A DNA stretch of 64,000 bases from an uncultured Chloroflexia bacterium (GTDB taxonomy: Bacteria; Chloroflexota; Limnocylindria; Limnocylindrales; CSP1-4): the NCBI GenBank assembly GCA_963833225.1, contig CAWHXD010000019.1:374075-438074 (forward strand), in the 5' to 3' direction. How positions within the stretch are numbered: position 1 is the first letter of the stretch; every line of letters starts with the position of its first letter. This document shows, one piece after another, positions 8,904 through 61,254 of this stretch. A model generated the notes under the pieces. The model worked only from the letters and a program-made list of their open reading frames with translations. It ran no database searches and had not been told where the DNA came from. The position numbers and the translations under genes were made by a program.

Positions 8904-9518
8904 TCAGCCGCCGACCGGCGGGGCGCTCTGCTGCCGCTCGAAGAGGTAGACGAACTCCGGTCCGTTGTGGCAGATCCAGCAGTTGTCGCCGCGGTTGGCC
9001 ATCGACGCCGGCAGCGGCGCATGGTCGTCGACGCCATGACACGCCGAGCACGGTTGGGTGCCGCCCATGTGCTCCGGCCGCAGCTCGGGGACCGCGCTGG
9101 CCCCGGCCTCCAGCCGTGTCTGGTGGCAGATCAGACAGTCCTCCTTGTGGAGGCTGCTGTGGCCCTCGGCGGTCTTGACCAGGCTGGCCTCGGAGTGGCA
9201 CGCGGTGCAGTCGCGCCAGCCGGCCAGCGGATGACCCATCACCGGGATCGGCTTGGTCCCGACGCCGCCGCTGGCGGTGAGATGGCAGCCGTTGCAGTTG
9301 GCGTCCGGCGGCATCTCGATCCCCACCGGCGACAGGGCCATGGCAGACTTCGGGGTGGGGGTGGGCGCCGGCGTGGCCCGCGGTGTCGGCGCCTCGGCGA
9401 TCTCGCCCGCGACATCCGGCACGGCGACCAGGACGAGGAACGCGCCAACCACCAGGATCCCGAGCGTCAGCAGCAGGACCACGATGCGGAAGCCGTACAT
9501 CGAGACCGCGCGGATCAC
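8904..9518 (-). CDS. membrane-anchored pentaheme c-type cytochrome
   Basis: One N-terminal TM helix (FRIVVLLLTLGILVVGAFLVLVAV), a Pro/Thr linker and five CxxCH motifs (CNGCH, CTACH, CLICH, CSACH, CWICH). The ATG overlaps the upstream stop (ATGA at 9515-9518). Confidence 0.9.
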   Translation of the reverse strand: MIRAVSMYGFRIVVLLLTLGILVVGAFLVLVAVPDVAGEIAEAPTPRATPAPTPTPKSAMALSPVGIEMPPDANCNGCHLTASGGVGTKPIPVMGHPLAGWRDCTACHSEASLVKTAEGHSSLHKEDCLICHQTRLEAGASAVPELRPEHMGGTQPCSACHGVDDHAPLPASMANRGDNCWICHNGPEFVYLFERQQSAPPVGG

Positions 9519-10883
9519 GACCCGGCTCCCTGGGCTGTCCGCTGCGCGGCGGCGACGGGTGTCGCGGCTCCCGGCTCAACCGCGGCTGCGTCACCGCTCT
9601 CGACGTGCTCCTCGTGGTCATGCTTGCGGAGCCACGGCCAGCTGAAGAACAGGTGCGTGTCGCCTTCGCCCATGTTGAGGTAGCGCTCCGCGAGGGTGTA
9701 GAAGAACGCCATGAACGCGCCCCGCACCCACCAGGATCGCGATCTCCACCATCGTCGGCGTGTAGGTCGCGTACGGGTAGACCACGGTGCCGGCGAGCGC
9801 GGTGACCGGGGCGATCTGCCCGGCGGCGACGAACAGGTACCGGTCGAGCAGGATCCCCGCGAGGATCAGCACGCTCGCGGCAACCATTGCCTCGGGGCGC
9901 CGGGCGATCGGCAGCGAGATGATCACGGCCGGGACCACCAGCCCGAGGATGACCCGCGCCCAGAACTGCGCGGCCAGCGGCCCCGTCAGGAGGGCGGTGG
10001 TCGCCTCGCGAAGGCCCCGCTCCTCGCCGTTCAGCCCGGCTGCGATCATGCGCACGGTCAGCGCGCCGACGAGCGCGATCCCGATGGCGAGCAGGAGCCG
10101 TGCCGACGGCAGCGCGACCGGTGCCGCCCGCTCGAAATCGGCGAGCCGCAGCCGGTGGACGAAGTAGAAGACGATGCCCAGCAGCGCGGTGCCGGCAAGG
10201 AACGCCGAGGCGACCATCGTGATCGGCGTGAAGATCCCGTTCCAGAACACCTTCGCACCCAGGACGCCGAACACCGCGCCCAGCGTCGCCGGCGCCAGGA
10301 TCGCGATGATCGAGGCGCAGGTGCAGGCGTACTGGTGGATCTTCGGATGGTCCGTGAACAGGCTCCAGACCTCGACGACCAGGACCACGAGATAGGCACC
10401 GTAGAACACGCCCATCCACCACATGGGCGACGAGGGGGAGGGGACCAGCACCGCCCCGAAGATCATCCGGACCGGGTAGTGCAGGTCGAGGGCGATGATC
10501 AGGAACGCCGTGGTGAGCGAGAGGAGCGCGAGGATCGCGTGGCGCTTCTCGAACGGCTGGAAACGCTCGATGCCGAACACCGTCCCCAGCGACGACGCGA
10601 GGCACAGCCCGCTGGTCATGATCGCGAAGAACGCGTAGCCGATGATCATCAGCCCCCACTCGAACGAGGGCGTGGTCCCGAACACCTCCCAGCCGGGTGG
10701 CAGGGCCACGATCGCCGCGACGGCCATGACGGCCATCAGGGCGAGCAACAGCCCCAGCCATGCCTGGAGCACGACGGGCATGCTCCTGACCTCGGTCACG
10801 AGCGAGCGGGCGAGCGGTCGCGGGGCCAGCGGGATCCGGTAGTCCAGCAGGTGGAGCTCGAGCGGCGTGACGGTCGCGCGCAC
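9515..10883 (-). pseudogene. NrfD/PsrC-family polytopic quinol-interacting subunit, interrupted by a +1 frameshift near 9720-9723 (or a sequencing error)
   Basis: ORF 9618-10883 is NrfD-like and hydrophobic up to ...TMVEIAILVGAG, then becomes Arg-rich nonsense. The last helix (AFMAFFYTLAERYLNMGEGDTHLFFSWPW) continues in ORF 9515-9727, whose stop forms ATGA with the next gene. An extra G sits in a GGGG run. GTG start at 10883 follows AAGGAGGG. Confidence 0.8.
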
Positions 10884-13948: not shown

Positions 13949-14956
13949 TCAGGCCCCGCCCGGCGTCTCCCCGCGGTCGGTCCGGATGACCCGCCGGTCG
14001 GTGACGATGGCGGTGATGAGCGACGCCGGCGTGACGTCGAACGCGGGGTTGAGCGCCCGGGTCCCGAGCGGAGCGGACGGGATATCGCGGAAGGACGTGA
14101 CCTCGCGGGCGTCCCGTTCCTCGATCACGATTCCGTCGCCGGTGGGCGTGCCGGCATCGATCGTGGACTCCGGGGCGACGACCAGGAACGGGATCCCCGC
14201 GTGGCGCGCGGCGAGGGCAAGCGCCAGGCTGCCGACCTTGTTCGCCGTGTCCCCGTTCGCGGTGATCCGGTCCGCTCCGATCAGCGCGATGTCGGCCAGC
14301 CCGCGGGCCAGCACCGACGCTGCCGCCCCGTCGACGAGCAGACGATGCGGGGCCCCCATCCTGGAGAGCTCCCACGCCGTCAGCCGCGCGCCCTGCAGCA
14401 GGGGCCGCGTCTCGAGCGGAAGCGCCTCCTCCAGCAGGCCGCGGGCATGAAGCTCGCCCACGACCCCGAGCGCCGTTCCCCGCTCCACGGCGGCCAGCGC
14501 GCCCGTGTTGCAGATGGTCATCGCCCGGACCCGGGGCCGAGCCACGAGCGTCCGGACCAGGTCCGCGCCACGGGTGGCCATCGCGGCACAGGCGGCAATG
14601 TCCTCGTCGCGGACGGCGAGCGCCTCGGCGAGGACCGAAGCCAGGCCGCCGGGCAGCTTCGCCAGGGCACGATCCGTTCCCCAGGCGAGGTTCACCGCCG
14701 TTGGGCGTGCGGCGCGGAGCCGTGTCGCGCCGGCCCGGACCGCTCGTGCATCACCGGGATGGAGGCGTGCCAGCAGCGCGACGCCCATGGCACCCGCGAC
14801 GCCCAGCGCCGGCGCACCCCGCACGGCGAGCCGCGAGATGGCATCCACGAGGGCATCAGGCGACGCCACTCGGAGGATGACGAGCTCGTCCGGGAGCCGC
14901 GTCTGGTCGATGAGGTGGATCTCGCCGTCAACCCAGTCGATCGTGCGTTCCGTCAT
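13949..14956 (-). CDS. mtnA: S-methyl-5-thioribose-1-phosphate isomerase / eIF-2B-like family
   Basis: IDWVDGEIHLIDQTRLPDE...AISRLAVRGAPALGVAGA...NTGALA...GADRITANGDTANKVG is the typical MtnA layout. Confidence 0.85.
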   Translation of the reverse strand: MTERTIDWVDGEIHLIDQTRLPDELVILRVASPDALVDAISRLAVRGAPALGVAGAMGVALLARLHPGDARAVRAGATRLRAARPTAVNLAWGTDRALAKLPGGLASVLAEALAVRDEDIAACAAMATRGADLVRTLVARPRVRAMTICNTGALAAVERGTALGVVGELHARGLLEEALPLETRPLLQGARLTAWELSRMGAPHRLLVDGAAASVLARGLADIALIGADRITANGDTANKVGSLALALAARHAGIPFLVVAPESTIDAGTPTGDGIVIEERDAREVTSFRDIPSAPLGTRALNPAFDVTPASLITAIVTDRRVIRTDRGETPGGA

Positions 14957-15096: not shown

Positions 15097-16974
15097 GTGC
15101 CTCGCGGCCCCGGGATCGGGGAGCGCCTCTCGTATCGCTTCGACCGGTTCATGGAGCGGGGCACCATCGCGCTGATCGCGGGCCTGGCCGTCGTCTCGGT
15201 GCTGATCATCGTGGTCATCGTGGCGCTGCTCGTGCTGTTCCGTGGCGACGACGGGCACGACATCCCGTCCTTGCTCTGGATGTCGATGATGCGCACGCTC
15301 GACCCGGGCACCGTGGGCGGGGACGAGGGCAGCGGCCGGTTCCTGGTCGGGATGTTCGCCGTCACCCTCGCGGGCATCTTCGTCATCAGCACCCTCATCG
15401 GGATCCTGAGCAACGGCCTCCAGGACAAGCTGGCGGCGCTGCGCAAGGGGCGATCCCGGGTGCTGGAGCGCGATCACGTCGTGATCCTCGGCTGGAGCCA
15501 GCAGATCTTCGACGTCGTGTCCCAGCTGCTCCAGGGCGGCGCCGGACGGCCGGGCAACGCGATCGTGATCCTGGCCGATCGCGACCGCGTCGAGATGGAG
15601 ACGGAGCTCCGAGATCGGGTGAAGATCCCTCGCCGAGCCAGCGTCGTCTGCCGGACGGGTCGCGGTTCCGACCTCTCCGACCTGCCCATCGCCAACCCGG
15701 ACGAGTCCCGGGCGATCATCGTCCTCCAGGGCAGCGGCGGCGACCCGGACGTCGAGGTCCTCAAGACCATCCTCGCGGTCACCGGTCGGCATGAGCGGCG
15801 CACGGAGCCGTACCGGATCATCGCCGAGGTTCGGGACAGCGCCAGCGAGGGCATCGCCCGTCTCGTCGCCGGCGACGAGGTCCACCTGCTGCTCGCGGAC
15901 GAGCTGGTCGCGCGGATCATCGCCCAGACCAGCCGCCAGTCCGGGCTGTCCACGGTCTATCTCGAGCTGCTCGACTTCGCCGGCCACGAGTTCCACGTGG
16001 CTGCGATGCCGGCGCTCGATGGCCGAACCTTCGGCGACGCGGTCGCCGCGGTCTCGGGCGGTGTCGCCGTGGGCATCGTGGGGGCCGGCGGCGCCCGACT
16101 GGCACCGTCGCCCGCCGACGTCCTGGGCGCCGGCGACCGGATCGTGATCCTGGCCGAAGACCAGGACTCGGCGCGGTTCGGCGCTCCCCTCGAGGTCGAC
16201 ATGGGGGCCATCCATGGCGCCGAGGCCCGCGAGCCCGAGCCCGAGCGGACGCTCATCCTCGGCTGGAACCGCCGGGGTCCGGCCATCATCCGCGAGCTGG
16301 ACCAGTACGTCGCGCCGGGCTCCGAGGTAGTGGCCGTATCGGCCCTGGACTCGGTGGTCGATGCCGGCGCGATCGAGGGGCTCGCGAACCTTCGCGCCTC
16401 CGGCCGGGTGCTGAGCTCCACCGCGCGGCCGGTGCTCGATTCGCTCGACGTTCCCTCCTACCCGCACGTGATCGTGCTGTGCGAGTCGGACGACAGCGAC
16501 GCGGACCTGGCCGATGCCCGGACGCTGCTGACCCTGCTCCACCTGCGCGACATCGCCTCGAGGAGCGAGCGACCGTTCACGATCGTGTCGGAGATGCTCG
16601 ACGAGGGTGACCGGGAGCTGGCCGAGATCTCGCAGGCCGACGACTTCATCGTCAGCTCGCGGCTGCTGTCCCTGCTCCTGGCCCAGATCGCGGAGACGCC
16701 GGAGCTCGCGGACGTCTTCCGGGAGCTGTTCCACGCGGAGGGCGCCGAGGTCTACCTGCGGGAGGTGCGCGACTACATCGTGCTCGGCAGGCCCGTGTCG
16801 TTCGCCACGCTCCAGGCGGCTGCCCAGGCCCGCGGGGAGGTGGCCCTCGGCTACCGGATCGCCGCCCGCGCAAAGGAGCCGGGTGCCCGATATGGGGTCG
16901 TGCTCAACCCGGACAAGGGCGCGGCGGTGACCTTCGTCGATGGTGACCGCGTGGTGGTGCTGGCCGAGCGCTAG
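15097..16974 (+). CDS. CASTOR/POLLUX-related ion channel with two RCK/TrkA-N-like domains
   Basis: LSYRFDRFMERGT N-terminus, two TM helices flanking a pore loop (TLDPGTVGGDEG), then HVVILGWSQQ and TLILGWNRRG Rossmann-like RCK starts. Start is uncertain (GTG 15097 or ATG 15151); the track start 14974 is Pro/Arg-rich. Confidence 0.75.
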   Translation: MPRGPGIGERLSYRFDRFMERGTIALIAGLAVVSVLIIVVIVALLVLFRGDDGHDIPSLLWMSMMRTLDPGTVGGDEGSGRFLVGMFAVTLAGIFVISTLIGILSNGLQDKLAALRKGRSRVLERDHVVILGWSQQIFDVVSQLLQGGAGRPGNAIVILADRDRVEMETELRDRVKIPRRASVVCRTGRGSDLSDLPIANPDESRAIIVLQGSGGDPDVEVLKTILAVTGRHERRTEPYRIIAEVRDSASEGIARLVAGDEVHLLLADELVARIIAQTSRQSGLSTVYLELLDFAGHEFHVAAMPALDGRTFGDAVAAVSGGVAVGIVGAGGARLAPSPADVLGAGDRIVILAEDQDSARFGAPLEVDMGAIHGAEAREPEPERTLILGWNRRGPAIIRELDQYVAPGSEVVAVSALDSVVDAGAIEGLANLRASGRVLSSTARPVLDSLDVPSYPHVIVLCESDDSDADLADARTLLTLLHLRDIASRSERPFTIVSEMLDEGDRELAEISQADDFIVSSRLLSLLLAQIAETPELADVFRELFHAEGAEVYLREVRDYIVLGRPVSFATLQAAAQARGEVALGYRIAARAKEPGARYGVVLNPDKGAAVTFVDGDRVVVLAER

Positions 16975-17002: not shown

Positions 17003-18864
17003 CTATCGCCGGCGCAGGCGCTCGCGGGCGTTGTCAAGCAGGATGAACAGCCCAAGGCCCGCAAGGACCAGCAGCACGAGCTCGCGCAGATACGTCCACG
17101 CGAGCAGCAGCGCGGACACGGACGCCAGGATCACCGTCACTCGGAGCAGGAGCGTCTCGACGCGTCGCTGGCGCGAACGACTCGATCGCGAGGTATCCGA
17201 TCACGAGCAGCATGACGGTGGCGCCCACGGGCAGGATCTGGAACCACAGGATCACGGCGAGCGCGATGACCAGGACCCCGACGCTCAACGCCGCCCACGT
17301 CTCGGCAAACACGCGCCGCCGGGTGTGGTCGGGCGGCTCCGGGGTGGCGGTAGACGTGAGGTGTTCCCGAGGATCGCCGCGGTAGCCCGCGTCATAGCGG
17401 GCGAGATACGCCTCGGCCGCGGCCGCCGCGGCCCGCAGCTCCGCCGCGGCCGCCCGCTGCGACGCGAGGCGGGCCTCGCCGTCGGCCAGCTCGGTCGCCC
17501 GGCGAGCCCGGTACTCGCCAAGCCCGGAGGCCTCGGCCAGGGCACGGACCTCAACACCCAGCCCGGGAAGGGTCGAGGCAAGCTCGGATGCCTCGGCTTC
17601 GATCGCGCGCCGTTCCGCATCGAGGGTCGCAACGCGGCCCTCGAGCGTCGCACGCGTCTCGGCCGGCGTCGGGATCCCGGCCAGCCCGACGAAGCTCAGC
17701 GGGTCGTTCCAGGACTGGCGGACGGTCCCGGCGCGTGTGTACTTCGGCCCCGCGGGCGCTCGCTCGCCCGCCATCCGGTCCCCGGTGTCCAGGCCCCACA
17801 GGCCCCGGTACGCGTCCACCCACCCGTCGGCATCCGAGACCAGGACGGGGCTCCACGCGATCTCCTGGCCCGGGCCGACGGTGACGCCGTCGCCACGCGC
17901 ATAGTCCACGAACGGGATGCTCACGAGGCGCGCGATCATCTCGGCAAGGTCGCCGGGGTCGGGCTGGTTGAGCGTGTCGCGCCACGTCCGTCGGACCCAG
18001 TCGAGAATGCCGCGCTGCAGCGCGGACCCGGGCAGGGCAAGCCGCATGATGTACTCGCCAGGCTCGACGTACGTCGCATGCGGACCCGGCGCCGGGGTAG
18101 ACGACGACGTGCTCGCCCTCCTTGCGGAGCGTGGGGTCGTCCCAGCGGCGGCGCAGGTCCGCGCCACGCTCGTCGTGCGCCGCGGCCGCGAACCAGATCG
18201 GGATGACGTCCCCGTCGGGCAGCTGCTCGAGGATCACGAAGGCCTGCTCCCAGTCGGCCTCGTGGTCATTGGCGCCCTCGAACGTCGAGCGCCAGTCATT
18301 CATCGGGTAGAAGAACAGGTAGTGCAGGACGACCCAGCCATCCTGGCGGACGACGCGTCCGTGATAGCTGACCCGCGGGTCCCTCGAACGCAGGCGCTGG
18401 TACTTGATTGCGGCCGCGGCGGCCGTGCCGCCCGGGACCTTGCCGCGCACGAGGAGCGAGGCCACGACCCCGGCGTCCAGCATGCGGGCGAGGATGCCCA
18501 CGCGAGCCAGGCGCCCGGGCGCGCGGAACCGTGGCCGGTCTGGCCGGTTCATGAACCTCGCGAGCTCGAGCGGGTTGAGCGGCTCCTGCACGAAGCGCAG
18601 GAAATGGGCTTCCCCGGGCGGCGCGTCGCCAATCGCCGCCAGGCGCTCGGCGTCGAGCTCGCCGACCGGGACCACCACCCGTGCGGCTGACGGCGTGGGG
18701 CCAGAGAGCAGGTCGCATGCGGCCAGGTAGCTCGTCGCCGGGGTGGGGAAGAACTGCTCCCCGTGCGTGAACCGCAGGATCGGCTCGAAGCGGCGAAGCA
18801 GGGCCTCGTCCCCATCGCCCGGGCTCGCCGGGGCCGCGGGCGCCACGCCCACCGGGACGGTCAT
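17003..18864 (-). pseudogene. membrane-anchored protein with FFYPMNDW...NDHEADWE motif (tentatively Vps62/DUF946-like), coiled coil and C-terminal TM helices; two frameshifts
   Basis: Three reading frames must be joined. The first join is ...EGEHVVVYPGAGS|HATYVEPGEYIM... near 18080-18087. The second is ...LLVIGYLAIESFA|QRRVETLLLRVTVILASVSALLLAWTYLRELVLLVLAGLGLFILLDNARERLRRR* near 17168-17176, with TAG at 17003-17005. Both sites are extra C/G in short runs. Confidence 0.7.
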
Positions 18865-19336
18865 TCGCGTTGCCCGGCCGAGATGCGTGCGCGGTCGAGG
18901 AGGTCACACCCAGGACCTCGCGGACCTCGCGCTGGTTGAGGTAGAACACGGTGATGATGTTGAGCCCCATCCACAGGTGGTTGGCGCCGCCGTTCGCGAA
19001 GCCGTAGAGATCGAGCGCGATGGCCAGCCCGGTGACGACCATCGCCAGCAGCCAGCCCACCCGCCTGCGGCCCAGCATCCCCAGGGCCGAGACCACCAGC
19101 ACGACGCCGTAGATCGCGAGGATCGAGCCCGCCCACGGCACCTGTCGGACCAGCGCGATGAAGTCGGGCGTGGTCGAGAGCGCGACCGCGGGCTGGAGTG
19201 CGACGAAGCTGGTCCCGCCGACCAGGATGAACACCAGGATCGCCCTGAACAGCATCACGCCGGAGAGGATGTAGAGCGTCAGCGGCAGCCGCCGCCGGGG
19301 CGATCCCGAGGCGGGCAGGGGAGCAGGTTCCGACAT
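18861..19336 (-). CDS. 4-TM membrane protein, unknown function (3' end uncertain)
   Basis: MSEPAPL...LTLYILSGVMLFRAILVFILVGG...SILAIYGVVLVVSALGML...WLLAMVVTGLAIALDLY...MGLNIITVFYL. The in-frame ORF runs on to 18296 through the next gene. An alternative frame ends at 18861 with an ATGA overlap, so a further frameshift near the 3' end is possible. Confidence 0.5.
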
Positions 19337-20322: not shown

Positions 20323-21674
20323 TCAAGCGTTCGCGATCTCGTCCCGGAACGCGCGGATGTCCTCCAGGCGGCGCCGGAGCGCGTTGAGGAAGCGGGCGCC
20401 TGTCTCGCCGTCCACGATCCGGTGGTCTGCCGAGAGCGTCAGCTTCATCACCTGCCGGATCCCGATGCCGCCGTCGACGGCCATCGGGGTGGCGATCGCC
20501 GAGGACACGGCCAGAATCGCGGCCTCGCCGGGGTTGATGATCGCGCTGAACTCCTCGACGCCGAACATCCCGAGGTTGCTCACGGTGAACGTGGAGCCGG
20601 CCAGGTCGTCGACCGGGATGGAGCCGTCCCTCGCCGCCGCCGCCAGCGCCGCGACACGATCGTGGAGCGCCGCGATGGTGAGACGGTCCGCGTCACGGAC
20701 GACGGGCACCACGAGCCCCGACGGGACCGAGACCGCCACCCCGAGGTGGACGCGCCGACGGGGATAGACGACCTCGCCGTCGGTGCGCGAGTTGACGTCC
20801 GGGAACTCGGCCAGCGTCTGGGCGGTGGCCGCGAGCACGAAGTCGGTCACGGTGAGGGTGTGGCCCTCTGCCTTGAGCTCCGCGCGGAGCGCGAGCACGC
20901 GGGTGACGTCCACCGCCACCGTCACGGTGAAGTGCGGCGTCGTCTGCCAGCTGTTCGTGAGCCGGGCGGCGATGGTCCGGCGCATCCGGCTCATCGGACG
21001 CGGTGCGTCCTCGCCCTCGACCGGGGGGATGACCGGCTGGGCGACGGGCACCGTCGCGGGGGCTGGCGCTGTGGCTGCGGGTGCCGCCGCGGGCGTGGGT
21101 GCCCCGGCCACGGGGACCGGTCGCGCGGTGGCCGCGGCCCGGACGTCGCGCTCGACGATCCGGCCCTCGGGGCCCGAGCCGGTGACCGAGAGCGGGTCAA
21201 CGCCCAGCTGCGCGGCAAGACGGCTCGCGCGCGGGCTGATCTTCACGCGGCCGGGGGCCGCGGGCGCGGGCGAAGGTGCGGCCTCCGGTGCCGCGGCGGC
21301 CGCTTCCACCGGGGCCTCTTGTGCCTGCGGCGAGGCGGGCGTCGCGACCGCGCGCAGCACCGCGTCCGCGACGGGCGCGGTCACGCGGCGTGACCGGCTC
21401 GGCCGGCGTCTCGGGGACGGCCTCGCCTGGCTGGCCGATCCAGCCGCAGACCGCGTTGACCGGTGCCGTCTCACCATCGGCGACGACCCGGGCGAGGAGC
21501 ACGCCCTCCTCGAATGTCTCGACCTCCATCGAGCTCTTGTCGGTCTCGATCTCGAACAGGACGTCGCCCTTGTGGACGGGGTCGCCCACCTCCTTGCGCC
21601 AGAGGGTGAGCACGCACTCCTCGGTCATCTGGCCGGGCTTGGGCATCAGGATCGGGGTGGCCATCGGTGGCTCC
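20323..21674 (-). pseudogene. dihydrolipoamide acyltransferase (E2) of a 2-oxoacid/acetoin-type dehydrogenase complex, frameshifted in the Ala/Pro linker (or a sequencing error)
   Basis: The lipoyl domain (MATPILMPKPGQMTEE...EIETDKSSMEVE) is in one frame, with ATG at 21674 after AAGGAG. The E3-binding segment (ISPRASRLAAQLGVD) and catalytic domain (SADHRIVDG) are in ORF 20323-21477. The frames switch near 21380-21400. Confidence 0.8.
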
Positions 21675-21696
21675 TTGCTCGCTCGGCGTCCGGCCG

Positions 21697-24000
21697 TCAG
21701 ACCAGCGCCACGACGGCGGTGACGATGTCGCCCGAGTTGGGCAGGAACGCCTTCTCGAGGCGTTCCGCCTGGGGGCTGATCCCCGGTGCGGCGCCGATCC
21801 GGCCCACCGGGGCGTCGAGATCGTCGAACGCCTCGGCCTGGATGCGGGCCACGATCTCGTTCACGAACGAGCCGGTGAGCACCGCCTGTGCGGCGACCAC
21901 GCAGCGTCCGGTCTTGCGCACGGACGCGAGGATCGTGTCCATGTCCAGCGGGACGAGGCTGCGGACGTCGATCACCTCGGCCTGGATCCCGCGCGATACC
22001 GCGAGCACGTCGGCAGCGGCCAGGGCGTCCGGGACCGCCGGCCCCCAGGCCACGATCGTGGCATCGCCGCCCTGCCGGACGACGTTCGCCTTGCCGATCG
22101 GCGTGGTGTAGTCGCCCTCGGGCACCACGCCCTTGGTGGAATACAGGCCCTGGCTCTCCACGAACACCACCGGGTTGTTGGTCTGGATCGCGCTCCGCAG
22201 CAGGCCCTTGGCGTCCGCGGCCGTGGCCGGGTAGACGACCCACAAGCCGGGGATGTGGGTGAACAGCGACTCCAGGCTCTGGCTGTGCTGGCCGCCGTAG
22301 CCCTTGCCGGCCCCCACCGAGCACCGGATCACGATCGGCACCTCGACCTGGCCGCCGGACATGTAGTGCCACTTCGCGGCCTGGTTGGCGATCTGGTCGG
22401 ACGACATCAGCGCGAAGTCCATGTACATCAGCTCGACCACCGGTCGCAGGCCCACGATGCCCGCCCCGACCGCGGTGCCGCAGATCGTCGCCTCGGAGAT
22501 CGGCGTGTTGAACACGCGGTCGCGCCCGAAGGTCTCGATCAGGCCCTTGGTCATCTTGAACGCTCCGCCATAGTCGGCCACGTCCTCGCCGTAGAAGATG
22601 ACCCGCCGGTCGCGGCGCATCTCCTCGACCAGCGCGTCGCGGATGGCATCGCGGTACAGGATCCGGCCCTCCGCATCGACCTTGCTCACCGGGGCGTCCG
22701 CGAGCAGCGCGGGCTTCGCATCTGCGGCCGGAACCTCCTCGGACGTGCCGTCGGTGTAGAGCAGGTCAAGCAGGCTGGACGGATCGGGGTCCGTGGCCGC
22801 CGCGGCGCGCTTCGCTGCCCGGGCGTTGCGCTCGGCCGCTCCCGCAAGCACAGCGGCCACCTCGTCGTCGGTGGCAAGCCCGGTTTCGACGAGTTGGCCC
22901 TTGAGCTGCTCGATCGGGTCGACGGCCTTCCACGCGGCCTCCTCGTCGCGCGTCCGGTACTCGTTGCGCGGGTCGGACAGCGAATGGCCGTAGTAGCGGT
23001 AGGTGGAGGCCTCGATGAGGACGGGCCCGTCTCCGGCGCGGCACAGCGCCGCGGCCCGCGTGACGGCGTCGCGGACGGCCAGCACGTCCATGCCGTTGAC
23101 CACCTCGGCGTGCATGTTGTCCGTCGCGAACCCGGCCGCGCGGCGCGCCAGGTGCTTGATGCCCATGACCTCGTCGTCGGTCCGGTGGGTCATGCCGTAG
23201 TGGTTGTTCTGGATGAAGAAGATGATCGGCAGCCCGTACGGCCGATCGCCCGCCAGGTGGTTCGTCCACTGGTGCTGGGCCGCCCAGTTGAGCAATTCCA
23301 GGACCACGCCGTTCGCGTACGCGCCGTCGCCGGCGAAGCAGCACACGACCCCGTCGGTCTGCTCGTAGCGGTGGGCCATCGCCGCGCCTGTCGCGATCGG
23401 CACCGAGCCACCGACGATCGCGTTGGCGCCCAGGTTGCCCGTGGAGAAGTCGCCGATGTGCATGCCGCCCCCGCGGCCGCGGGAGTAGCCCTCGTCCTTG
23501 CCGAACAGCTCGGCGATCACCTTGTAGACGTGCTCCTCGAGGGCCGCGTCCAGGAGCTCGTCGCGGGTGCCGTCCTCGCGGCCCATCCGCGCGCGCAGCT
23601 GCTCGAGCGTCATCTGGCGCAGCGCCGAGAAGCCCTTGGCGATCGCGTCGCCGTGCCCGCGGTGTGACGAGGTGACGTTGTCCGTGATCCGGAGCACGGA
23701 CGAGGCGCCCACCGCCGACGCCTCCTGCCCGATGGAGACGTGCGTGGGACCCCGGTAGTCGTAGCCGGGCAGGGGTTCGTAGCCGCCGCCGGAGCGGAGA
23801 CGGACGATCATCTCCTCCATCTCGCGGATCGCGAGCATGTCGTCCAGGATGCCCAGCGCCTTCGCCTTGTCCAGCGACCCAGCCTTCACCTCGGAGGCGA
23901 GATCGCCCGCGTACTGGAAGCCCGTGATGGACCCCAGCTCCTCCTCGAACGGCGCGAAGTCGGGGCGGGTGTCGCTGTGGTAGACGGTCTCGGTGCTCAT
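21697..24000 (-). CDS. fused E1 alpha-beta component of a thiamine-diphosphate-dependent 2-oxoacid/acetoin-type dehydrogenase
   Basis: N-terminal half carries the TPP motif (FAGDGAYANG...FFIQNNHYGM). C-terminal half is E1-beta-like (ILYRDAIRDAL...FNTPISEATICG...transketolase C-terminal-like). ATG 24000 follows AGGAGA. 767 aa. Confidence 0.85.
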   Translation of the reverse strand: MSTETVYHSDTRPDFAPFEEELGSITGFQYAGDLASEVKAGSLDKAKALGILDDMLAIREMEEMIVRLRSGGGYEPLPGYDYRGPTHVSIGQEASAVGASSVLRITDNVTSSHRGHGDAIAKGFSALRQMTLEQLRARMGREDGTRDELLDAALEEHVYKVIAELFGKDEGYSRGRGGGMHIGDFSTGNLGANAIVGGSVPIATGAAMAHRYEQTDGVVCCFAGDGAYANGVVLELLNWAAQHQWTNHLAGDRPYGLPIIFFIQNNHYGMTHRTDDEVMGIKHLARRAAGFATDNMHAEVVNGMDVLAVRDAVTRAAALCRAGDGPVLIEASTYRYYGHSLSDPRNEYRTRDEEAAWKAVDPIEQLKGQLVETGLATDDEVAAVLAGAAERNARAAKRAAAATDPDPSSLLDLLYTDGTSEEVPAADAKPALLADAPVSKVDAEGRILYRDAIRDALVEEMRRDRRVIFYGEDVADYGGAFKMTKGLIETFGRDRVFNTPISEATICGTAVGAGIVGLRPVVELMYMDFALMSSDQIANQAAKWHYMSGGQVEVPIVIRCSVGAGKGYGGQHSQSLESLFTHIPGLWVVYPATAADAKGLLRSAIQTNNPVVFVESQGLYSTKGVVPEGDYTTPIGKANVVRQGGDATIVAWGPAVPDALAAADVLAVSRGIQAEVIDVRSLVPLDMDTILASVRKTGRCVVAAQAVLTGSFVNEIVARIQAEAFDDLDAPVGRIGAAPGISPQAERLEKAFLPNSGDIVTAVVALV

Positions 24001-29380: not shown

Positions 29381-30489
29381 CTAGAAGTCGAACTGGTCGA
29401 CGTTCGTCGCGTCGAACCGGAAAGCCGGCCCGAGGATGACGACGCTGTCCGCACCGATCGTGTACGGCTGGCCGTTGTTGAGACTCGGCACGGTGAAGGT
29501 CTCGCCCTCAGCGCCCGTGATCTCGCCCTTGACCAGCTTGTCGGCGATGACGTAGGAGAGGTAGCCGAGGTCCGGGAACACTCCACAGGCCGAAGACCGG
29601 GGAGGTGCCGTCCTTGACGAACGGCCTTCATGTCGTTGGGGAAGCCGAGGCCGGTGACCTTGACGGAGTCCGACTTGCCGGCCTGCGAGACGACCTGTGC
29701 CGCCGCGAGGATGCCGACCGTGGTCGGGGCGACGATGACCTTGAGGTTCGGGTACTTGGTCAGCAGAGTCTGCGCCTGCTGGGTGCTCTTGGTCGCGTCG
29801 TCATCGCCGTAGACGGTGTCGACGAGCTTGAGCCCCGCGTACTTGGTCGTCCTTGAGGGTCGTCTTCATGAGGTCGATCCAGGCGTTCTGGTTGGTGGCC
29901 GTGGCGGCCGCCGACAGGATCGCGATCTCGCCGGTGCAATTCGGCGCGAGCTCGCACGCCCAGTCGGCGAGGTTGACGCCGACGCCGCTGAAGTCAACCT
30001 GGTTGACGAACACGTTGTAGGCGCCGACCGCGGGGCTGGAGTCAAAGCCGACAACCTTGATGCCCGCTGCCATGGCCTCCTTGAGCGCCGGGGCGACCTC
30101 GTCCTTGCCGTCAGCGGAGATGATGATCGCGCTGACGTTCTGGGTGGTGAGGTCCGTGATGAACGGGATCTGGAGGTCGGCCTTCGCCTCGTTGGGCCCG
30201 ACCTGGATGACGGTCCCGCCGAGCTCGCCGGCAGCCTTGTCGACGCCCGTCTTCGCGGCGGCGAAGTACTGGTTGACGATGTCCTTGGGCAGGTAGCCGA
30301 CGGTCATGGACCGGGCGCCATGGACGCGGGCGCCATGGACCGGGCGCCATGGACTCGGGCGCCATGGACTCGGGCGCCTGGGCTGGCGGGGGCGGCGGAC
30401 GGGCTGGCGGCGCCGTTGCCGCAGGCCGACAGCACGATGACGGCCGTGCCTGCGATGGCGAGCCACCGTCCGGCTGAATGGAGCTTCAA
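29381..30489 (-). pseudogene. rhamnose-type sugar ABC transporter substrate-binding lipoprotein (RhaSTPQ-type), at least 4 frameshifts
   Basis: TTG 30489 follows GGAGGA. Lipoprotein signal KLHSAGRWLAIAGTAVIVLSAC. The mature domain (VGYLPKDIVNQYFAAAKTG...) is in another frame. Further frame changes occur near 29843-29850 (LKDD|KYAGLKLVDTVYGDDD), 29619-29626 (NDMKA|FVKDGTSPVFGLW) and 29578-29588 (|VFPDLGYLSYVIADK...FDF*). Confidence 0.8.
30306..30378. repeat. tandem repeat, 5 units of 15/14 bp (ATGGAC[T/C/G]CGGGCGCC), inside the SBP lipoprotein linker
   Basis: Units lie at 30306-19 (14), 30320-34 (15), 30335-48 (14), 30349-63 (15) and 30364-78 (15). They encode GARVH pentapeptide repeats in the signal-peptide frame. 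Confidence 0.9.
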
Positions 30490-30527
30490 GGGAGTTCCTC
30501 CTCTATGTCGATTACTGGCGCGCGTTC

Positions 30528-31564
30528 TCACCCGGGAATCGCGTCGGCCGGCTGGTGCCGGCGCCTCTGGACGCGTTCATGGCCGTTCTGGCCTTGGTGA
30601 GCGAAGGTTGGGATGAGGACGGACAGGATCAGCAGCAACCCCAGGGCGATGCTCTGGACCTCGACCGACACGCTGGCGAGCCGGAGGGCGTTCTGCATCA
30701 CGGCGATCGTGAGCACGGCCAGGACCGTGCCCGGGATCGTGCCCGAACCTCCGAAGATATTGGCGCCGCCCGAGCAGCACGACCGTCGACGGCCGTGATC
30801 GTCATCCCCTCGCCGGCATCGGCGCGGGCGCTCGAGAGACGGGATGTCAGCACGACGCCCGCGAAGGCGGCGATGGTGCCCGTGAGGACGAACAGGCTGG
30901 TGCGGAGACGGGTCACCCGGACGCCCGAGTAGCGAGCCGTCCCCGCGTTCCGGCCAATGGCGTAGATCTGGCGCCCGATCCACGTCCGGTGGAGCACGAT
31001 GCCGAGCGCCAGCGCGAGGCCGAGGAAGATGACGAACGACCATGGGATCACCGTGCCGGGAACGTCGCCGAACCCGAGCTGGGTGAAGGCCTCCGGGAAG
31101 TTGCTGACACCGCGCGGCCCAAGGACGATGAGCGCCATCCCGCGGAACAGGGCCAGCGTGCCGAGCGTGACCACGAGCGACGGCAGGCCGCCGCGGCCGA
31201 CGAGGACGCCGTTGAGGAAGCCGCCGGCGGCGCCGATGAGCGAGCACGAGCGGGATGGCGATCTCGAGGGGCACGCCGGCCGCCCACAGGAAGCCAAGGG
31301 TTGCGCTGGCGAGCCCGGCCATCGACTCCACCGACAGGTCGATCTCGCCGAGGATGATGACCAGGGTCAGCGGCAGGGCCATGATCGCCACCTCCATGAG
31401 GGCGGCGACCAGGTTCGAGAAGTTCTTGGCGGTCAGGAAGTACGGGGAGAGGGCGTTGCCCATCACACCAGCCCCAGCAGGGCGACCAGGAGCAGCGTCT
31501 CCCATCGGGCCAGCCCCCGAAGCACGGAGCCGATCACCGGCCGGGACCGCGCCGGCGCCGTCAT
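30528..31564 (-). pseudogene. sugar ABC transporter permease (RhaQ-like), at least 4 frameshifts
   Basis: ATG 31564 overlaps the upstream stop (ATGA). Good sequence alternates between frames: MTAPARSRPVIGSVLRGLARWETLLLVALLGLV | VMGNALSPYFLTAKNF...IAIPLVLA | LIGAAGGFLNGVLVG...GEGMTITAV | VVLLG | GANIFGGSGTIPGTVLAVLTIAVMQNALRL... Switch sites are near 31465, 31238-46, 30791-801 and 30776-83. Confidence 0.8.
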
Positions 31565-32580
31565 CGGGCGCCACTCCGGGTGTTCGCGCGCTGGACGCCA
31601 CGACGGATGAGCTGGTCGCTGCTGATCGCCAGCAGGATGACAACGCCGTAGATCGCCTGGAGCCAGAACTGCGACAGGCCGACGAGGATCAGCGCATTCG
31701 CGATGAACCCGAGGAACAGGGCGCCGATCGCCGCGCCGGCGAGCGTGCCCGAGCCGCCGAGGATGTTCACCCCGCCGACCACGACCGCGGCGATGACCGC
31801 GAGGACCACGCCCGTTGCCGCTGTGCCGTTGATGGTGCCGAACTCGATCACCCACATCACGCCCGCCAGGCCCGCGAGGATGCCGCACACGGCATAGGCG
31901 ACGAAGATGACCCGGCGGGACGGGATGCCCAGGATCGCGGCCGCATCAGGGTTGCTGCCGACGGCGTAGACCTGGCGGCCGAAGCGGGTCGAGCGCAGGA
32001 GCACGGAGCCCACGACGACCACCCCGATCGTGACGCAGGACGAACACGGGGATGCCGAGGAAGTCGGTGCGGGCGATGTGGGCGAACCCCTCGGGAAGGC
32101 AGGCGAGCGGGACCTGGTCGGGACCGGCGATCACGTAGTCGATCCCGCGGAAGATGCTGAGCGTTCCCAGGGTGGCCACGATCGCGCGGCACCTTGAGCA
32201 TCGCGATGATGAACCCGTTGACCATCCCGAGCACAAGGCCGATGGCGAGCCCCAGCACGAGCGCACCGAGCCGGGTCGACGGTCTCCAGCTCGAGCGAGC
32301 GGGCGACGGCGTAGGCAACCAGCCCGATGATCGCCTCGACCGACAGGTCGATGCCCCGGGTGATGATGACGAGCGCCTCGCCGACAGCGGCGATCGCCGT
32401 GATCGACGCGAGGACCGCGACCTGGCTGAAGTTGTCGACGGACAGGAACTGCGGGGCCATGGTCGTGACCAGGCCGCCGAGCACGAACATGAGCGCGACC
32501 AGGGTCAGCTCGCGCTGGCGTCCGATCACCAGCAGCCAGTGGCCGCGGCCCCGCCGCACCGGGAGCGTCGCTTCAGCCAT
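31561..32580 (-). pseudogene. sugar ABC transporter permease (RhaP-like), at least 3 frameshifts
   Basis: Segments MAEATLPV...ITRGIDLSVEAIIGLVAYAVA | GALVLGLAIGLVLGMVNGFIIAMLKVP | AIVATLGTLSIFRGIDYVIAGPDQ...GIPVFV | TIGVVVVGSVLLRSTRFGRQVYAVGSN...GGVNILGGSGT... lie in four frames. Switch sites are near 32270-300, 32184-90 and 32030-37. Confidence 0.8.
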
Positions 32581-34070
32581 GGGATCGCCTGGGTGCCGGT
32601 GGCCGCGAACATCACGCGCTCCTGGGTGGCCTCATCCCTCGAGATCTCGGCCGTGACCCGGCCCTCGTGGAGGACGATGATCCGGTCGGACATCGCCAGC
32701 ACCTCGGGCAGATCGCTCGAGATCAGGATGATCGCCAGGCCCTTCGCGGCCAGCTCGGCGATCAACCGGTGCACCTCGACCTTGGCTCCGATGTCGATGC
32801 CCCGCGTCGGCTCGTCGAGGATCAGGACCCGCGGGCCGGACGCCAGCCACTTGGCCAGCACGACCTTCTGCTGGTTGCCGCCCGACAGGGCGCCCACCTG
32901 TTGGTCGACGCCGGTCATCCGTACGTCGAACTGCTCGGTGTGCTCGGCTGCCACGGCTCGCTCCTTCGCCTCGTGCACCAGGAGCCTGGGGAACAGGCGG
33001 GGCAGGATGGGCAGCGTGACGTTGTGGGCAATGGAGAAGTCGAGGATCAGGCCCTGCTGGTGGCGGTCCTCGGGCAGATAGGCGATGCCCGCGCTCATCG
33101 CCCCGGACGGCGCGCCGAAGTCCACGGGTGTTCCGTCCAGCCGCACGTCTCCGCTGTCCCGCCGGTCGATCCCGAACAGCACCCGAGCGATCTCGGACCG
33201 GCCGGCCCCGACGAGGCCCGCGAGCCCGACGATCTCCCCGGCCCGCACCGAGAACGAGACATCGCGGAACACACCGACCCGCGTCAGGTTGGAGACCTCG
33301 AGCAGCACATCGCCGATCGGGTTCTCGACCTTTGGAAACAGGGACACGGTCCGGCCGACCATGTGGCGGATGAGGTCGGCGGTCGTGAGCTCCGATGTCG
33401 GCGCGGTGACGACATGACGGCCATCACGGAAGACCGTCGCCCGGTCACTCAGGTCGAACACCTCGTCCAGGCGGTGGCTCACGAACAGGATGGCCACGCC
33501 CCGGTCCCGCAGCCGGCGGACGATGGTGAACAGCCGCTCGACTTCGTGGGCCGAGAGCGAGGCCGTGGGTTCATCAAGGATGAGCACGTTGGCCTCGACC
33601 GACAGGGCCTTGGCGATCTCGATCAGCTGCTGGTCGGCCATCGACAGGCCACGAACCGGTGCGCCGACGTTGACCTGCACGTCCAGCTCTTCAAACAGCG
33701 TCTCCGCCGACCGCCGCATGCCGCGCCAGTCGATCAACCCGAGGTGGCCAGACGGCGCGTGACCGATGAACACGTTCTCGGCGACCGTGAGGTCCGGGAA
33801 CAGGCGTGGCTCCTGGTGGACGACCGCGATCCCCAGCGCGCGCGACCGGGATGGCCCGGCGATCTGGGTTGGCACGCCGTCCAGCAGGATCGTGCCGCTG
33901 TCCGGCTGGTGGACCCCGGCCAGGATCTTGACAAGGGTGCTCTTGCCGGCACCGTTCTCGCCGACGAGCGCGTGCACCTCGCCCGCCAGGATGTCGAGCG
34001 AGACATCGCTCAGCGCCGCGGTCGCCCCAAAGCGCTTGGAGATCCCGGACAGGGCGACGCGCGGCGTCAT
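32526..34070 (-). CDS. sugar ABC transporter ATP-binding protein (duplicated ATPase, RhaT/RbsA-like)
   Basis: Two ABC cassettes (GENGAGKST...LSMADQQLIEIAKAL...LILDEPT and GLVGAGRSE...LSGGNQQKVVLAKWL...LILDEPTRGID). The ATG 34070 overlaps the deoR stop (ATGA). The last ~18 codons overlap the permease start and look non-native. Confidence 0.88.
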   Translation of the reverse strand: MTPRVALSGISKRFGATAALSDVSLDILAGEVHALVGENGAGKSTLVKILAGVHQPDSGTILLDGVPTQIAGPSRSRALGIAVVHQEPRLFPDLTVAENVFIGHAPSGHLGLIDWRGMRRSAETLFEELDVQVNVGAPVRGLSMADQQLIEIAKALSVEANVLILDEPTASLSAHEVERLFTIVRRLRDRGVAILFVSHRLDEVFDLSDRATVFRDGRHVVTAPTSELTTADLIRHMVGRTVSLFPKVENPIGDVLLEVSNLTRVGVFRDVSFSVRAGEIVGLAGLVGAGRSEIARVLFGIDRRDSGDVRLDGTPVDFGAPSGAMSAGIAYLPEDRHQQGLILDFSIAHNVTLPILPRLFPRLLVHEAKERAVAAEHTEQFDVRMTGVDQQVGALSGGNQQKVVLAKWLASGPRVLILDEPTRGIDIGAKVEVHRLIAELAAKGLAIILISSDLPEVLAMSDRIIVLHEGRVTAEISRDEATQERVMFAATGTQAIPWLKRRSRCGGAAATGCW

Positions 34071-57821: not shown

Positions 57822-59216
57822 ATGCGCTCACTGTCCAGGCATTCCGGCCTGGCCCGTCTGGTCGCCGGCGGCACCGTCGCGGTGCTCCTGGTGTCCGCAT
57901 GCTCGGGCTCGTCGAGCACACCGGCGCCCGCATCGCAGGCGCCCGGCGCGTCCACGGCTCCCGCGACCCAGGCGCCCGCCGATGACAACGCCACTGACTC
58001 GGGCGGCCCCATCATGGTCTGGGTGGACGCCCCGCGCGTCCCCGCCGCCGAGGCGTTCCAGAAGGCCTACCCGGACATCCAGATCGAGATCAACGCGATC
58101 CCGGGCAACGTCGGCAGCACCGACCTGCAGCAGAAGTTCGCCCTGTTCAACCAGGCCGGCAGCGGCTGGCCGGACGCGATCTTCTTCCCGTCCAACGACG
58201 ACATCGCCTGGGCGACCAGCGCCAAGATCAACTACGCCCGCGACCTGAGCGGCCTGCTCGGGGACTACCTCACGGGCTACACCGAAGCCAACAACGCCCC
58301 GTGCAACATCGACGGCCAGGTCCGCTGCGCCCGCAACGACTCGGCACCCGACGTGTTCTGGTACAACAAGACGCTGTTCGACGAGTGGGGCTACACCCCG
58401 CCGACGACGTGGGAGGCGTACCAGGACCTCGGCATCAAGATCGCCACCGAGCATCCGGGCTACATCAGCGGCTTCCTCGGTGACGCCTACGCGCCGGACC
58501 GCTACCTGTGGGCCAGCGGCTGCCCGACCAACGACCGCCTGTCCGAGACCAAGGTCCACATCAACACCAGCGATCCGATGTGCACGCGGGTCGTGGACCT
58601 CGTCGACAAGATGGTCGCGGCCGGGGCCCTCAGCGCCGTCGGCATCTTCGACCCCAACGCCGCCGAGATCGGCCCCAAGCTCGCCATGAGCCCGGGCGCC
58701 GTGTGGTGGGGCAACTACCTGTTCCGCGACACCTGGAAGATCCCGGCCGGCCAGATGACCGCCACCAACCCGATCAACTGGACCGGCGAGACCCCCGGCT
58801 TCACCGGTGACGAGGGGGGCGGCCTGTGGGGCGTCTCCAGCCACATCAAGGGCAAGCAGCTCGATAACACGCTGACCTTCATCAAGTTCGTCACCAGCGA
58901 CCCGCGCTGGCAGGTCGATCTCTCGACCGGCCTTCCCGCCTACACGGCTCCCCAGCAGGCGTGGCTCGACAAGGGCGCGAAGGACGGCTACTTCGCCGAC
59001 TACCCGACGACTGCGGCGGCCATGGTCGAAGCCGGCAACCGCGTTCGCGGCAACCACTACTACATGCTCTACAACACCGGCGGCATCTGGAGCAAGACCG
59101 TGACGCCGGTCCTCACCGCGGGCCAGGACCTCAGCGCGGCCTGGGATGCCTTCGGCACCCAGCTCGTCAACGAGGCCAAGACCTTCGGGTACGAGGTCGT
59201 CGACACCGGGAACTGA
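57822..59216 (+). CDS. carbohydrate ABC transporter substrate-binding lipoprotein (family 1)
   Basis: ATG 57822 lies 6 nt after GGAGGAG. Signal plus lipobox (LVAGGTVAVLLVSAC), a Ser/Pro/Ala linker, then an SBP_bac_1-like body. Confidence 0.88.
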   Translation: MRSLSRHSGLARLVAGGTVAVLLVSACSGSSSTPAPASQAPGASTAPATQAPADDNATDSGGPIMVWVDAPRVPAAEAFQKAYPDIQIEINAIPGNVGSTDLQQKFALFNQAGSGWPDAIFFPSNDDIAWATSAKINYARDLSGLLGDYLTGYTEANNAPCNIDGQVRCARNDSAPDVFWYNKTLFDEWGYTPPTTWEAYQDLGIKIATEHPGYISGFLGDAYAPDRYLWASGCPTNDRLSETKVHINTSDPMCTRVVDLVDKMVAAGALSAVGIFDPNAAEIGPKLAMSPGAVWWGNYLFRDTWKIPAGQMTATNPINWTGETPGFTGDEGGGLWGVSSHIKGKQLDNTLTFIKFVTSDPRWQVDLSTGLPAYTAPQQAWLDKGAKDGYFADYPTTAAAMVEAGNRVRGNHYYMLYNTGGIWSKTVTPVLTAGQDLSAAWDAFGTQLVNEAKTFGYEVVDTGN

Positions 59217-59228
59217 TCCCTGCGCAGG

Positions 59229-59253
59229 CAGCCTCCCGGCCCCCGGGAGGCTG
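59229..59253 (+). terminator. hairpin CAGCCTCCCGG-ccc-CCGGGAGGCTG after the SBP gene
   Basis: Read directly, 13 nt after the stop. Confidence 0.5.
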
Positions 59254-59261
59254 ACTAGACT

Positions 59262-59291
59262 GATGGGGAAGGGCCTGTGTCCTTCCCCATC
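59262..59291 (+). terminator. hairpin GATGGGGAAGG-8 nt-CCTTCCCCATC (second intercistronic stem-loop)
   Basis: Read directly. Together with 59229-59253 it forms a tandem stem-loop pair between the SBP and permease genes. Confidence 0.5.
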
Positions 59292-59352
59292 ACGAGTTCC
59301 AGCGCCAATCGCCCCATCCTCGTCACAGCCCGTGAGGTGACCGCAGGCCCGC

Positions 59353-60285
59353 ATGAGCAGTTCGTCCCCGGTCGGAGTGGCGGCCGCCCGTCGTCGATCC
59401 GGAATGCCTCGCCTGTCCCTGCCCGGCGCCGAGTCGCGTGGCGCCGCCATCCTGGTGCTCCCGTTCGTGGTGCTGCTGACGGTCGCGGGCATCGTCCCGA
59501 CCGTCTACGCGCTGCTCAAGAGCCTCGGCGACAGCAACGGCGAAGGCATTGGGTTCAGCAGCTTCGCGAAGATCATCGGGGACTTCCGGTTCGTCGACAC
59601 CTTCCTCAACATCGGGATCACGCTGATCGTCTGGCTGCCCCTGATGATGGTCGGTGTCGTGGCCCTCGCCCTGCTCGTGCACGCCAGCCCGGGCCGCTTC
59701 GGCTCCGTGATGCGGTTCGTGTACTACGTGCCGGGCGCGCTTGCCGGGATCGCGAACTTCATGCTCTGGCTGTTCATCCTGAATCCGGGCCAGAGCCCCG
59801 TCGACTTCCTGTGGAACGGGTTCGGGTACACGACCCTCAACCAGGTCGCCCAGCCCACCTACCTGCCAGTCATCCTGGCGGCGATGCTGTTCTTCCAGGG
59901 CGCCGGCACGTGGCTGGTGATCGTCAACGGCGGCCTCAACGGGATCCCCGACGAGGTCATCGAGGCGGCCGTCGTGGACGGGGCCGGATCGTGGGCGATG
60001 ACATGGCACATCATGCTGCCGATCATCCGGCCGTGGATCGGCTACATGCTCCTGCTCAACGTCGCGTACGGGTTCCAGCTGTTCATCGAGCCGCAGGTGC
60101 TGAGCCAGGTCACGCATGGGCAGATCTCGCCCCAATGGAGCCCGAACCAGCTCAGCTACACCTACGCGTACCAGATCCTCGACACGGGCGCGGCTGCCGC
60201 GATGTCGGTGATCCTGCTCGCCATCTCCCTCGGACTCGGCCTGGTGATCGTCTTCCGCACCGGCCTGTTCTCCGATGATCACTGA
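59353..60285 (+). CDS. carbohydrate ABC transporter permease (MalF/UgpA-like)
   Basis: 310 aa, 6 TM, with an EAA-type loop (IPDEVIEAAVVDGAGSWAMTWHIMLPIIRP). Confidence 0.88.
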   Translation: MSSSSPVGVAAARRRSGMPRLSLPGAESRGAAILVLPFVVLLTVAGIVPTVYALLKSLGDSNGEGIGFSSFAKIIGDFRFVDTFLNIGITLIVWLPLMMVGVVALALLVHASPGRFGSVMRFVYYVPGALAGIANFMLWLFILNPGQSPVDFLWNGFGYTTLNQVAQPTYLPVILAAMLFFQGAGTWLVIVNGGLNGIPDEVIEAAVVDGAGSWAMTWHIMLPIIRPWIGYMLLLNVAYGFQLFIEPQVLSQVTHGQISPQWSPNQLSYTYAYQILDTGAAAAMSVILLAISLGLGLVIVFRTGLFSDDH

Positions 60286-60296
60286 GGAGGCGGAGC

Positions 60297-61223: not shown

Positions 61224-61254
61224 GCGCGTCGCACCGGGGAGCCACCGTCGCCAG

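Follow-up and report, generated by a model that had tools for sequence, protein, structure and literature searches.

The window analysed here, a stretch of 64,000 nucleotides from a Chloroflexota (Limnocylindrales-like) lineage, contains four genes of an ABC importer arranged in one operon on the minus strand: a tandem-ABC ATPase (RhaT-like; 32526–34070), a RhaP-like permease (31561–32580; 338 residues once corrected), a RhaQ-like permease (30529–31564; approximately 349 residues once corrected), and a rhamnose-type substrate-binding lipoprotein (29381–30489; 368 residues once corrected). The lipoprotein has a TTG start and the lipobox LSAC, and a 15-nt tandem repeat of five copies on the same strand (30305–30378) encodes its (APESM)n linker. 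The operon lies among genes of rhamnose catabolism: rhaM, an FGGY kinase (rhaB), rhaI, a class II aldolase (rhaD), a rhaEW-like gene, and a DeoR regulator adjoin it.

The binding protein matched best to the RhaS profile TIGR02637 over its full length, with an E-value of 4.8e-97 and 324.8 bits, just below the curated cut-off of 342.25, and RhaI passed TIGR02635 (538.5 bits; cut-off 531.35). In full-length alignments the corrected proteins of the window match the LsrC/LsrD/RbsC and AraG/XylG families, and the ATPase itself the AraG/XylG/RbsA ATPase family of NCBIfam; the orthologues carry PF02653 (BPD_transp_2) twice and ABC_tran twice. The RhaSTPQ-type naming used for this CUT2-family importer is that of Rhizobium leguminosarum. 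The likeness lies in the gene content of the operon (a RhaS-like binding protein, two CUT2 permeases, and a tandem-domain ATPase) and in its position among catabolic genes, whereas the repetitive (APESM)n linker of the lipoprotein, its score below the RhaS cut-off, and the lineage set the window's importer apart; L-rhamnose is a putative substrate.

As assembled, the operon is heavily broken. Frame changes were located first by frameshift-aware protein-to-DNA alignment against relatives at 45–55% identity, which gave three in the RhaP-like permease, four in the RhaQ-like permease, and at least four in the binding protein, in agreement with the minima of three, four, and four given by the first-pass annotation. 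The window-specific indels were then resolved in a six-way DNA alignment of the window and five close relatives, which raised the total to 17, all of them 1 nt in size, with 13 insertions and four deletions between positions 32585 and 29573. One, an insertion (A) at 32585, falls in the last codons of the ATPase gene, three insertions fall in the RhaP-like gene (32270, C; 32185, G; 32034, G), and seven events fall in the RhaQ-like gene and its tail, comprising deletions at 31467 and 30580 and insertions at 31241 (G), 30788 (C), 30768 (C), 30593 (G), and 30533 (G), the last of which adjoins the stop codon. The remaining six are in the binding-protein gene, as insertions at 30386 (C), 29849 (C), 29622 (G), and 29573 (G) and deletions at 30341 and 30312, the two deletions lying in units 3 and 5 of the tandem repeat. 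The ATPase, previously described as uninterrupted, is so for nearly its whole length, but its final three codons are thrown out of frame by the insertion at 32585, which gives it a false tail of 19 residues.

All 17 indels are contained in a patch of 3013 bp (29573–32585; not assigned to a strand), at approximately one per 177 bp, that extends from the last three codons of the ATPase gene to approximately 190 nt short of the binding-protein stop. In the approximately 61 kb outside it there are four firm frameshifts, one in nrfD (near 9721), two in a gene for a 619-residue protein (near 18080 and 17170), and one in the E2 linker (near 21384); a possible fifth in 18861–19336, counted earlier among about five such events, was not confirmed. 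The background rate predicts 0.2 indels in the patch (Poisson P = 2.5e-27 for 17), and even the earlier counts of 11 inside and five outside give P = 4e-15. The original point that uniform sequencing error does not explain the clustering holds, the error here being non-uniform. A reference-free Viterbi scan of codon usage recovered only six of the 17 patch events directly and reported many gene boundaries as frame switches; used solely to look for other dense frameshift patches within the window, it found none. Of the isolated errors, three (the one in nrfD and the two in the 619-residue protein) adjoin the same base, and the one in E2 could not be typed. These four may match the classic homopolymer type better than the patch errors do.

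A scan of GTDB representative genomes with the ATPase yielded only relatives at 57% identity or less; these served as the first references and were unsuitable for base-level comparison. Among the six aligned sequences the 17 indels are unique to the window, and they are also absent, where overlapping, from three further partial metagenome contigs, which are intact. The sister contig L081 is 93% identical to the window. Its importer is intact, and 37 unique 1-nt indels of its own (30 of them insertions) break up rhaEW, deoR, rhaB, and rhaD. L083 has approximately ten unique 1-nt indels, and its ATPase and permeases are split. It is a second assembly hit in the importer operon. The more divergent L082 and L084 show only approximately three each over 21 kb, L085 shows none, and both L084 (an NCBI MAG) and L085 (a Logan assembly of an SRA run) are fully intact. 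The lesioned sister contigs bear Flye-style names. The comparison with sister contigs places the window's lesions in the window only and finds dense patches of 1-nt indels in L081 and L083, those of L081 in other genes.

Once the 17 indels are reverted, all four open reading frames are again full-length and uninterrupted, and they are 94–96% identical to an intact sister. The corrected RhaP-like permease has 94.7% amino-acid identity to its counterpart in L081 and the RhaQ-like permease 94.2%, and the corrected binding protein is 96% identical to the intact P0001, which has (APESM)5 at the same position as the linker in the window. The most likely reading is that in the real genome all four genes of the rhamnose ABC importer (those for the binding lipoprotein, both permeases, and the tandem ATPase) are intact. 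A recombinant or foreign origin of the segment was considered and rejected, since the identity of the patch to L081 (94–96%) resembles that of the flanks.

The first-pass annotation had offered selective decay of the importer as one of two readings, both left open; in this reading the organism or strain would carry a frameshifted rhamnose importer freed from selection, perhaps since another transporter took over. The distribution of the lesions is what such decay would give, in that they lie almost wholly in one functional unit, the binding protein and both permeases, with the catabolic genes intact, and a second sugar ABC system is present at 57963–61220. That system is intact but of CUT1 type, unrelated to the rhamnose importer, and located next to a LacI regulator instead of rhamnose genes, and nothing marks it as the replacement it was proposed to be. 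When we estimated dN/dS for the corrected genes, values of 0.16 (RhaP), 0.26 (RhaQ), and 0.11 (binding protein) were obtained, equal to those of functional, intact neighbors (ATPase, rhaM, rhaI, the regulator, and E1; 0.11–0.21), and they give no sign of decay. The coding sequence beneath the indels is under normal purifying selection. No in-frame stops occur in the corrected RhaP, RhaQ, or binding-protein genes, as had been remarked from the outset, and no excess of substitutions was found in the patch, whose rate does not exceed that of the flanks; between 29 and 33 kb the window has 47 unique substitutions at conserved sites, versus 61 in the intact sister L081. By a rough estimate based on the mutation spectra of bacteria, neutral accumulation of 17 indels would be accompanied by on the order of at least 100 extra substitutions and several stops. 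Spontaneous bacterial indels are generally deletion-biased and variable in size; those of the patch are all single bases, with insertions outnumbering deletions 13 to 4. Lesion patches identical in kind occur in other genes of the sister assemblies, and decay offers no mutational explanation for the allelic signature described below. Genuine decay of the importer is accordingly very unlikely.

Genuine pseudogene clusters in decaying genomes, such as those of Mycobacterium leprae under reductive evolution, display relaxed dN/dS, stops, multi-base and deletion-biased indels, and extra substitutions. The patch resembles them in having multiple frameshifts where the orthologues of relatives are intact, but differs in lacking all of these features; relaxed selection, mixed indel sizes, and deletion bias are not seen in the corrected importer genes. 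A narrower version, in which the indels are real in one strain, would have a Limnocylindrales-like soil population that very recently lost its high-affinity rhamnose importer by a localized burst of single-base insertions while keeping the catabolic pathway. We regard this as equally improbable; if true, it would imply an unknown localized process that generates indels, or a switch to another uptake route.

The inserted bases themselves point to a different origin. In ten of the ten window insertions that could be scored, the inserted base matches the allele of relatives at an adjacent polymorphic column, compared with a mean of 2.4 under the null, and none of 5000 shuffles reached the observed value. 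This pattern recurs in L081 (16 of 24; null 5.5) and L083 (6 of 9; null 1.9). An insertion that reproduces the neighboring alternative allele points to a consensus drawn from mixed strains rather than a mutation. None of the sampled relatives carries all of the inserted alleles, and the second haplotype is therefore hypothetical. Two other ideas about the patch were discarded. Homopolymer error was rejected, as only three of the ten scorable insertions extend a run, and a methylation motif (GAGTC/GANTC, at the two linker deletions) was dropped, as the other events, inspected by eye, have no shared motif.

Our preferred interpretation, to which we assign a probability of roughly 0.9, is that the clustered frameshifts are an artefact that arose locally, at the consensus or polishing step, when long reads (probably Nanopore) of mixed strains were assembled from a metagenome, and not a property of the organism. 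Across the patch the contig would have collected reads of two or more closely related strains, distinguished by differences at synonymous sites. At a strain SNP the consensus step would either write both alleles side by side, producing a +1 insertion, or drop a base, producing a −1 deletion, and each such error would break the reading frame. We infer from the signature that a second strain was present in the sample. The sequencing platform and pipeline of the window and of L081–L085 are judged from contig names and sizes; a protein 100% identical to the MtnA of the window lies on an NCBI/ENA contig of 949,758 bp, which implies long reads. The Microflora Danica long-read catalogue was assembled with Flye --meta and one round of Medaka (PMC12313526). 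A locally poor assembly, which the first-pass annotation had kept as its other explanation, is strongly supported by sister contigs with equally dense patches of 1-nt indels elsewhere and by inserted bases that are the alternative alleles of adjacent sites. Two points sit uneasily with an artefact, namely that the patch matches three genes of one transporter fairly neatly, as gene-specific decay also would, and that L083 too is hit in this operon. In the comparison with relatives, the importer ranks with the most conserved blocks. That conserved blocks determine the location of a patch by drawing cross-mapping reads is not general, as the patch of L081 lies in its least conserved block.

An artefact could also arise without strain mixing, if read depth over the patch were so low that the consensus came from one or a few Nanopore reads and raw indel errors survived polishing. 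The observed density of approximately one indel per 177 bp falls in the error range of raw or weakly polished Nanopore sequence, the sister contigs also show kilobase-scale patches, and low coverage is known to leave indels, with approximately 40× needed in Nanopore-only assemblies to avoid indel-fragmented genes (PMC9262707). Random errors, however, would not favor the alleles of adjacent sites in every scorable case; they would be expected to be enriched in homopolymers, unlike the minority of run extensions seen here, and to bring extra substitution errors, of which there are none. We consider low depth by itself improbable, though less so than the accounts that take the indels to be real. 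Programmed recoding, by ribosomal frameshifting or transcriptional slippage, would likewise yield full-length proteins, and their reconstruction across the shifts is all that speaks for it. It would require seventeen sites, spread over three genes and shifting in both directions, without a common slippery motif, and in eight relatives the corresponding proteins stay in one frame at each site of overlap. We give recoding practically no weight; these in-frame orthologues already effectively refute it.

The closest known counterpart of the patch is the indel-fragmented gene of long-read-only assemblies. Single-base indels that split conserved genes are the mark of indel-fragmented Nanopore genomes and MAGs, and their frequency in long-read-only assemblies depends on coverage and polishing (PMC9262707, PMC12313526). 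The window's indels resemble such errors also in being absent from relatives assembled from other public data (the NCBI MAG and the Logan SRA assembly). Classic Nanopore errors, in contrast, are homopolymer-length errors scattered along the sequence, whereas those of the patch are mostly non-homopolymeric, confined to one 3-kb block, and located at strain-polymorphic sites where they carry the alternative allele, which points to a collapsed-strain consensus.

Kilobase-scale frameshift patches in long-read-only soil MAGs can mislead pseudogene calls, inferences of gene loss, and metabolic reconstruction. Such patches are non-random, in that a whole operon can be struck, and different operons in sister assemblies. 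The presence of both alleles in tandem provides a simple, reference-based diagnostic that separates errors of this kind from real decay without access to reads. For the organism itself the frameshifts carry no biological weight, and its rhamnose importer is most likely normal.

The rhamnose cluster lies in DNA of 70% G+C that, of named relatives, is closest to Candidatus Limnocylindrales (Chloroflexota) MAGs. On the reverse strand it comprises, in gene order, a DeoR regulator (34882-34070), a tandem-ABC ATPase (34070-32526), a RhaP-like permease (32580-31561), a RhaQ-like permease (31564 to about 30529), a binding lipoprotein (SBP; 30489-29381), and rhaM, rhaB, rhaI, and rhaD; upstream, on the forward strand, are rhaEW and further genes. 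Judged by sequence, the reconstructed transport genes are a RhaSTPQ-type CUT2 importer, which they resemble in combining two BPD_transp_2 permeases with a tandem ATPase. The best match of the SBP was TIGR02637 RhaS, at 324.8 bits just below the cut-off of 342.25, and RhaI scored above the TIGR02635 cut-off.

Frame changes were first counted by aligning proteins of relatives (45-55% identity) to the DNA in a frameshift-aware manner, which exactly reproduced the numbers in the first-pass annotation (three in RhaP, four in RhaQ, and at least four in the SBP). A search with the reconstructed SBP returned hundreds of intact homologs at 89-96% identity, and we compared the window with five contigs that carry them: L081, L082, L083, L084 (NCBI MAG), and L085 (Logan assembly, SRA run). 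Nucleotide identity to the window is 93% for L081 (over 40470-19383) and 78% for L082. The six-way alignment identified 17 single-base indels exclusive to the window, comprising 13 insertions (at 32585, 32270, 32185, 32034, 31241, 30788, 30768, 30593, 30533, 30386, 29849, 29622, and 29573) and four deletions (at 31467, 30580, 30341, and 30312). When the insertions were removed and the deletions filled, four uninterrupted ORFs resulted, and the corrected SBP regained the lipobox (LSAC) and (APESM)5 linker found in P0001, the SBP of an intact sister. This linker, between the lipobox and the mature SBP, is encoded by a 15-nt tandem repeat of five copies (30305-30378, reverse strand); because other relatives have different Ala/Pro/Ser/Thr-rich sequences in its place, it is fast-evolving. 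The ATPase, previously called intact, is mostly spared, but its last three codons are shifted by the insertion at 32585, giving a false 19-residue C-terminal tail (IPWLKRRSRCGGAAATGCW; 32529-32585), whereas the ATPase of relatives ends in ...TGTQASDG*, with the stop overlapping the permease ATG.

The clustering of these frameshifts is real in the sequence, with 17 events in 3013 bp versus 0.2 expected at the background rate (P ~ 2.5e-27). About five frameshifts had been claimed elsewhere in the window, of which four were confirmed and a possible fifth was not. Three of these, all +1 and next to an identical base, match classic homopolymer-length errors, unlike most events in the patch: one in nrfD (~9721-9723) and two in a 619-aa protein with an NDHExDWE motif (~18080-18083 and ~17170). 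The remaining +1 event (~21384) falls in the poorly aligned Ala/Pro linker of E2, so its type is not assignable.

Either selective decay of the importer or a locally poor assembly had been proposed. A rough estimate from mutation spectra is that drift long enough for 17 neutral indels would also leave some longer deletions, some stops, and roughly a hundred additional substitutions. For the corrected genes, dN/dS against L081 was 0.16 for RhaP, 0.26 for RhaQ, and 0.11 for the SBP, and ranged from 0.11 to 0.21 for the ATPase, rhaM, rhaI, the SorC-type regulator, and E1. The corrected importer genes contain no in-frame stops. At outgroup-conserved sites within 29-33 kb, window-unique substitutions numbered 47 versus 61 in the intact-importer sister, at a rate no higher than in the flanks, and all 17 lesions are 1 nt in length, with an insertion-to-deletion ratio of 13:4. 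With no sign of relaxed selection alongside the indels, we reject decay. The suggested replacement of the importer by the ABC system at 57.8-61.2 kb finds no support: this intact sugar system (57963-61220, forward strand; SBP and two UgpA/E-like permeases) is CUT1-type, adjoins a LacI-family regulator, has no ATPase gene in its locus (57963-62334, forward strand), and is unrelated to the rhamnose importer, and nothing marks it as taking over from that importer.

The inserted bases are not arbitrary, which argues for an artefact. In each of the 10 window insertions that could be scored, the added base matches the relatives' allele at the adjacent polymorphic column (random-placement mean 2.4; 0 of 5000 shuffles reached 10), and such matches also occur in L081 (16 of 24 versus a null of 5.5) and L083 (6 of 9 versus 1.9). 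Homopolymer extension accounts for only 3 of the 10. Both SNP alleles in tandem are expected of a mixed-strain pileup consensus, not of mutation.

A further pointer to an artefact is that sister assemblies show the same class of lesion in other genes. L081, whose importer is intact, carries 37 1-nt indels unique to it, of which 30 are insertions; most are concentrated where it matches window 39564-34142 and fragment rhaEW and deoR there, with more in rhaB and rhaD. In L083, unique 1-nt insertions, about 10 in number, split the ATPase and permeases, and its dense patches also fragment DUF1810 and arginase. The public gene calls of L081 and L083 are unreliable inside such patches. In contrast, L082 and L084, which are more divergent and should have more natural indels, show only about three unique 1-nt indels apiece across 21 kb. 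Both L084 and L085 are fully intact, and the window's extra bases are absent from three further metagenome contigs wherever these overlap it.

The likely source fits as well. The MtnA-like protein of the window (13949-14956, reverse strand) is 100% identical to P0121, a database MtnA protein recorded on a 949,758-bp NCBI/ENA contig from which the window probably derives, and the sister contigs have Flye-style names and adjacent ENA assembly accessions; the sequencing platform of the window and these contigs is one that we infer. The Microflora Danica long-read catalog was assembled with Flye --meta plus a single Medaka round (PMC12313526), and Nanopore-only assemblies need ~40x coverage to escape indel-fragmented genes (PMC9262707). 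Together with the allele-tandem bases and the sister lesions, this supports a locally poor assembly, in which reads from at least two strains would have collapsed onto one contig at 32.6-29.6 kb and the consensus would, at synonymous SNPs, have either kept both alleles or omitted a base. Plain low coverage without strain mixing fits less well, as it predicts no allele-tandem signature and should add substitution errors and favor homopolymers, and neither effect was seen. Conservation of the importer relative to L082 and L084, where it is among the top blocks, could have favored cross-mapping at the patch, but L081's own patch falls within the least conserved block, so this would not be a general rule.

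Around the cluster, a SorC-family regulator and an E1/E2 2-oxoacid dehydrogenase pair (20323-24000, reverse strand) directly adjoin it, and this placement is kept in L081, L082, and L084, so these genes may be functionally linked to products of the rhamnose pathway. The window, L081, and L082 share rhaD, which L084 lacks. The window and L086, a further sister contig, are 93% identical yet differ in gene content at 15106-16968 (forward strand), where the window has a 666-aa gene and L086 a 171-aa DinB_2 gene (its 9460-9975).

As biology, the frameshift cluster is not a real feature; the value of the patch lies only in a caution, and a simple diagnostic, for calling pseudogenes in long-read MAGs.
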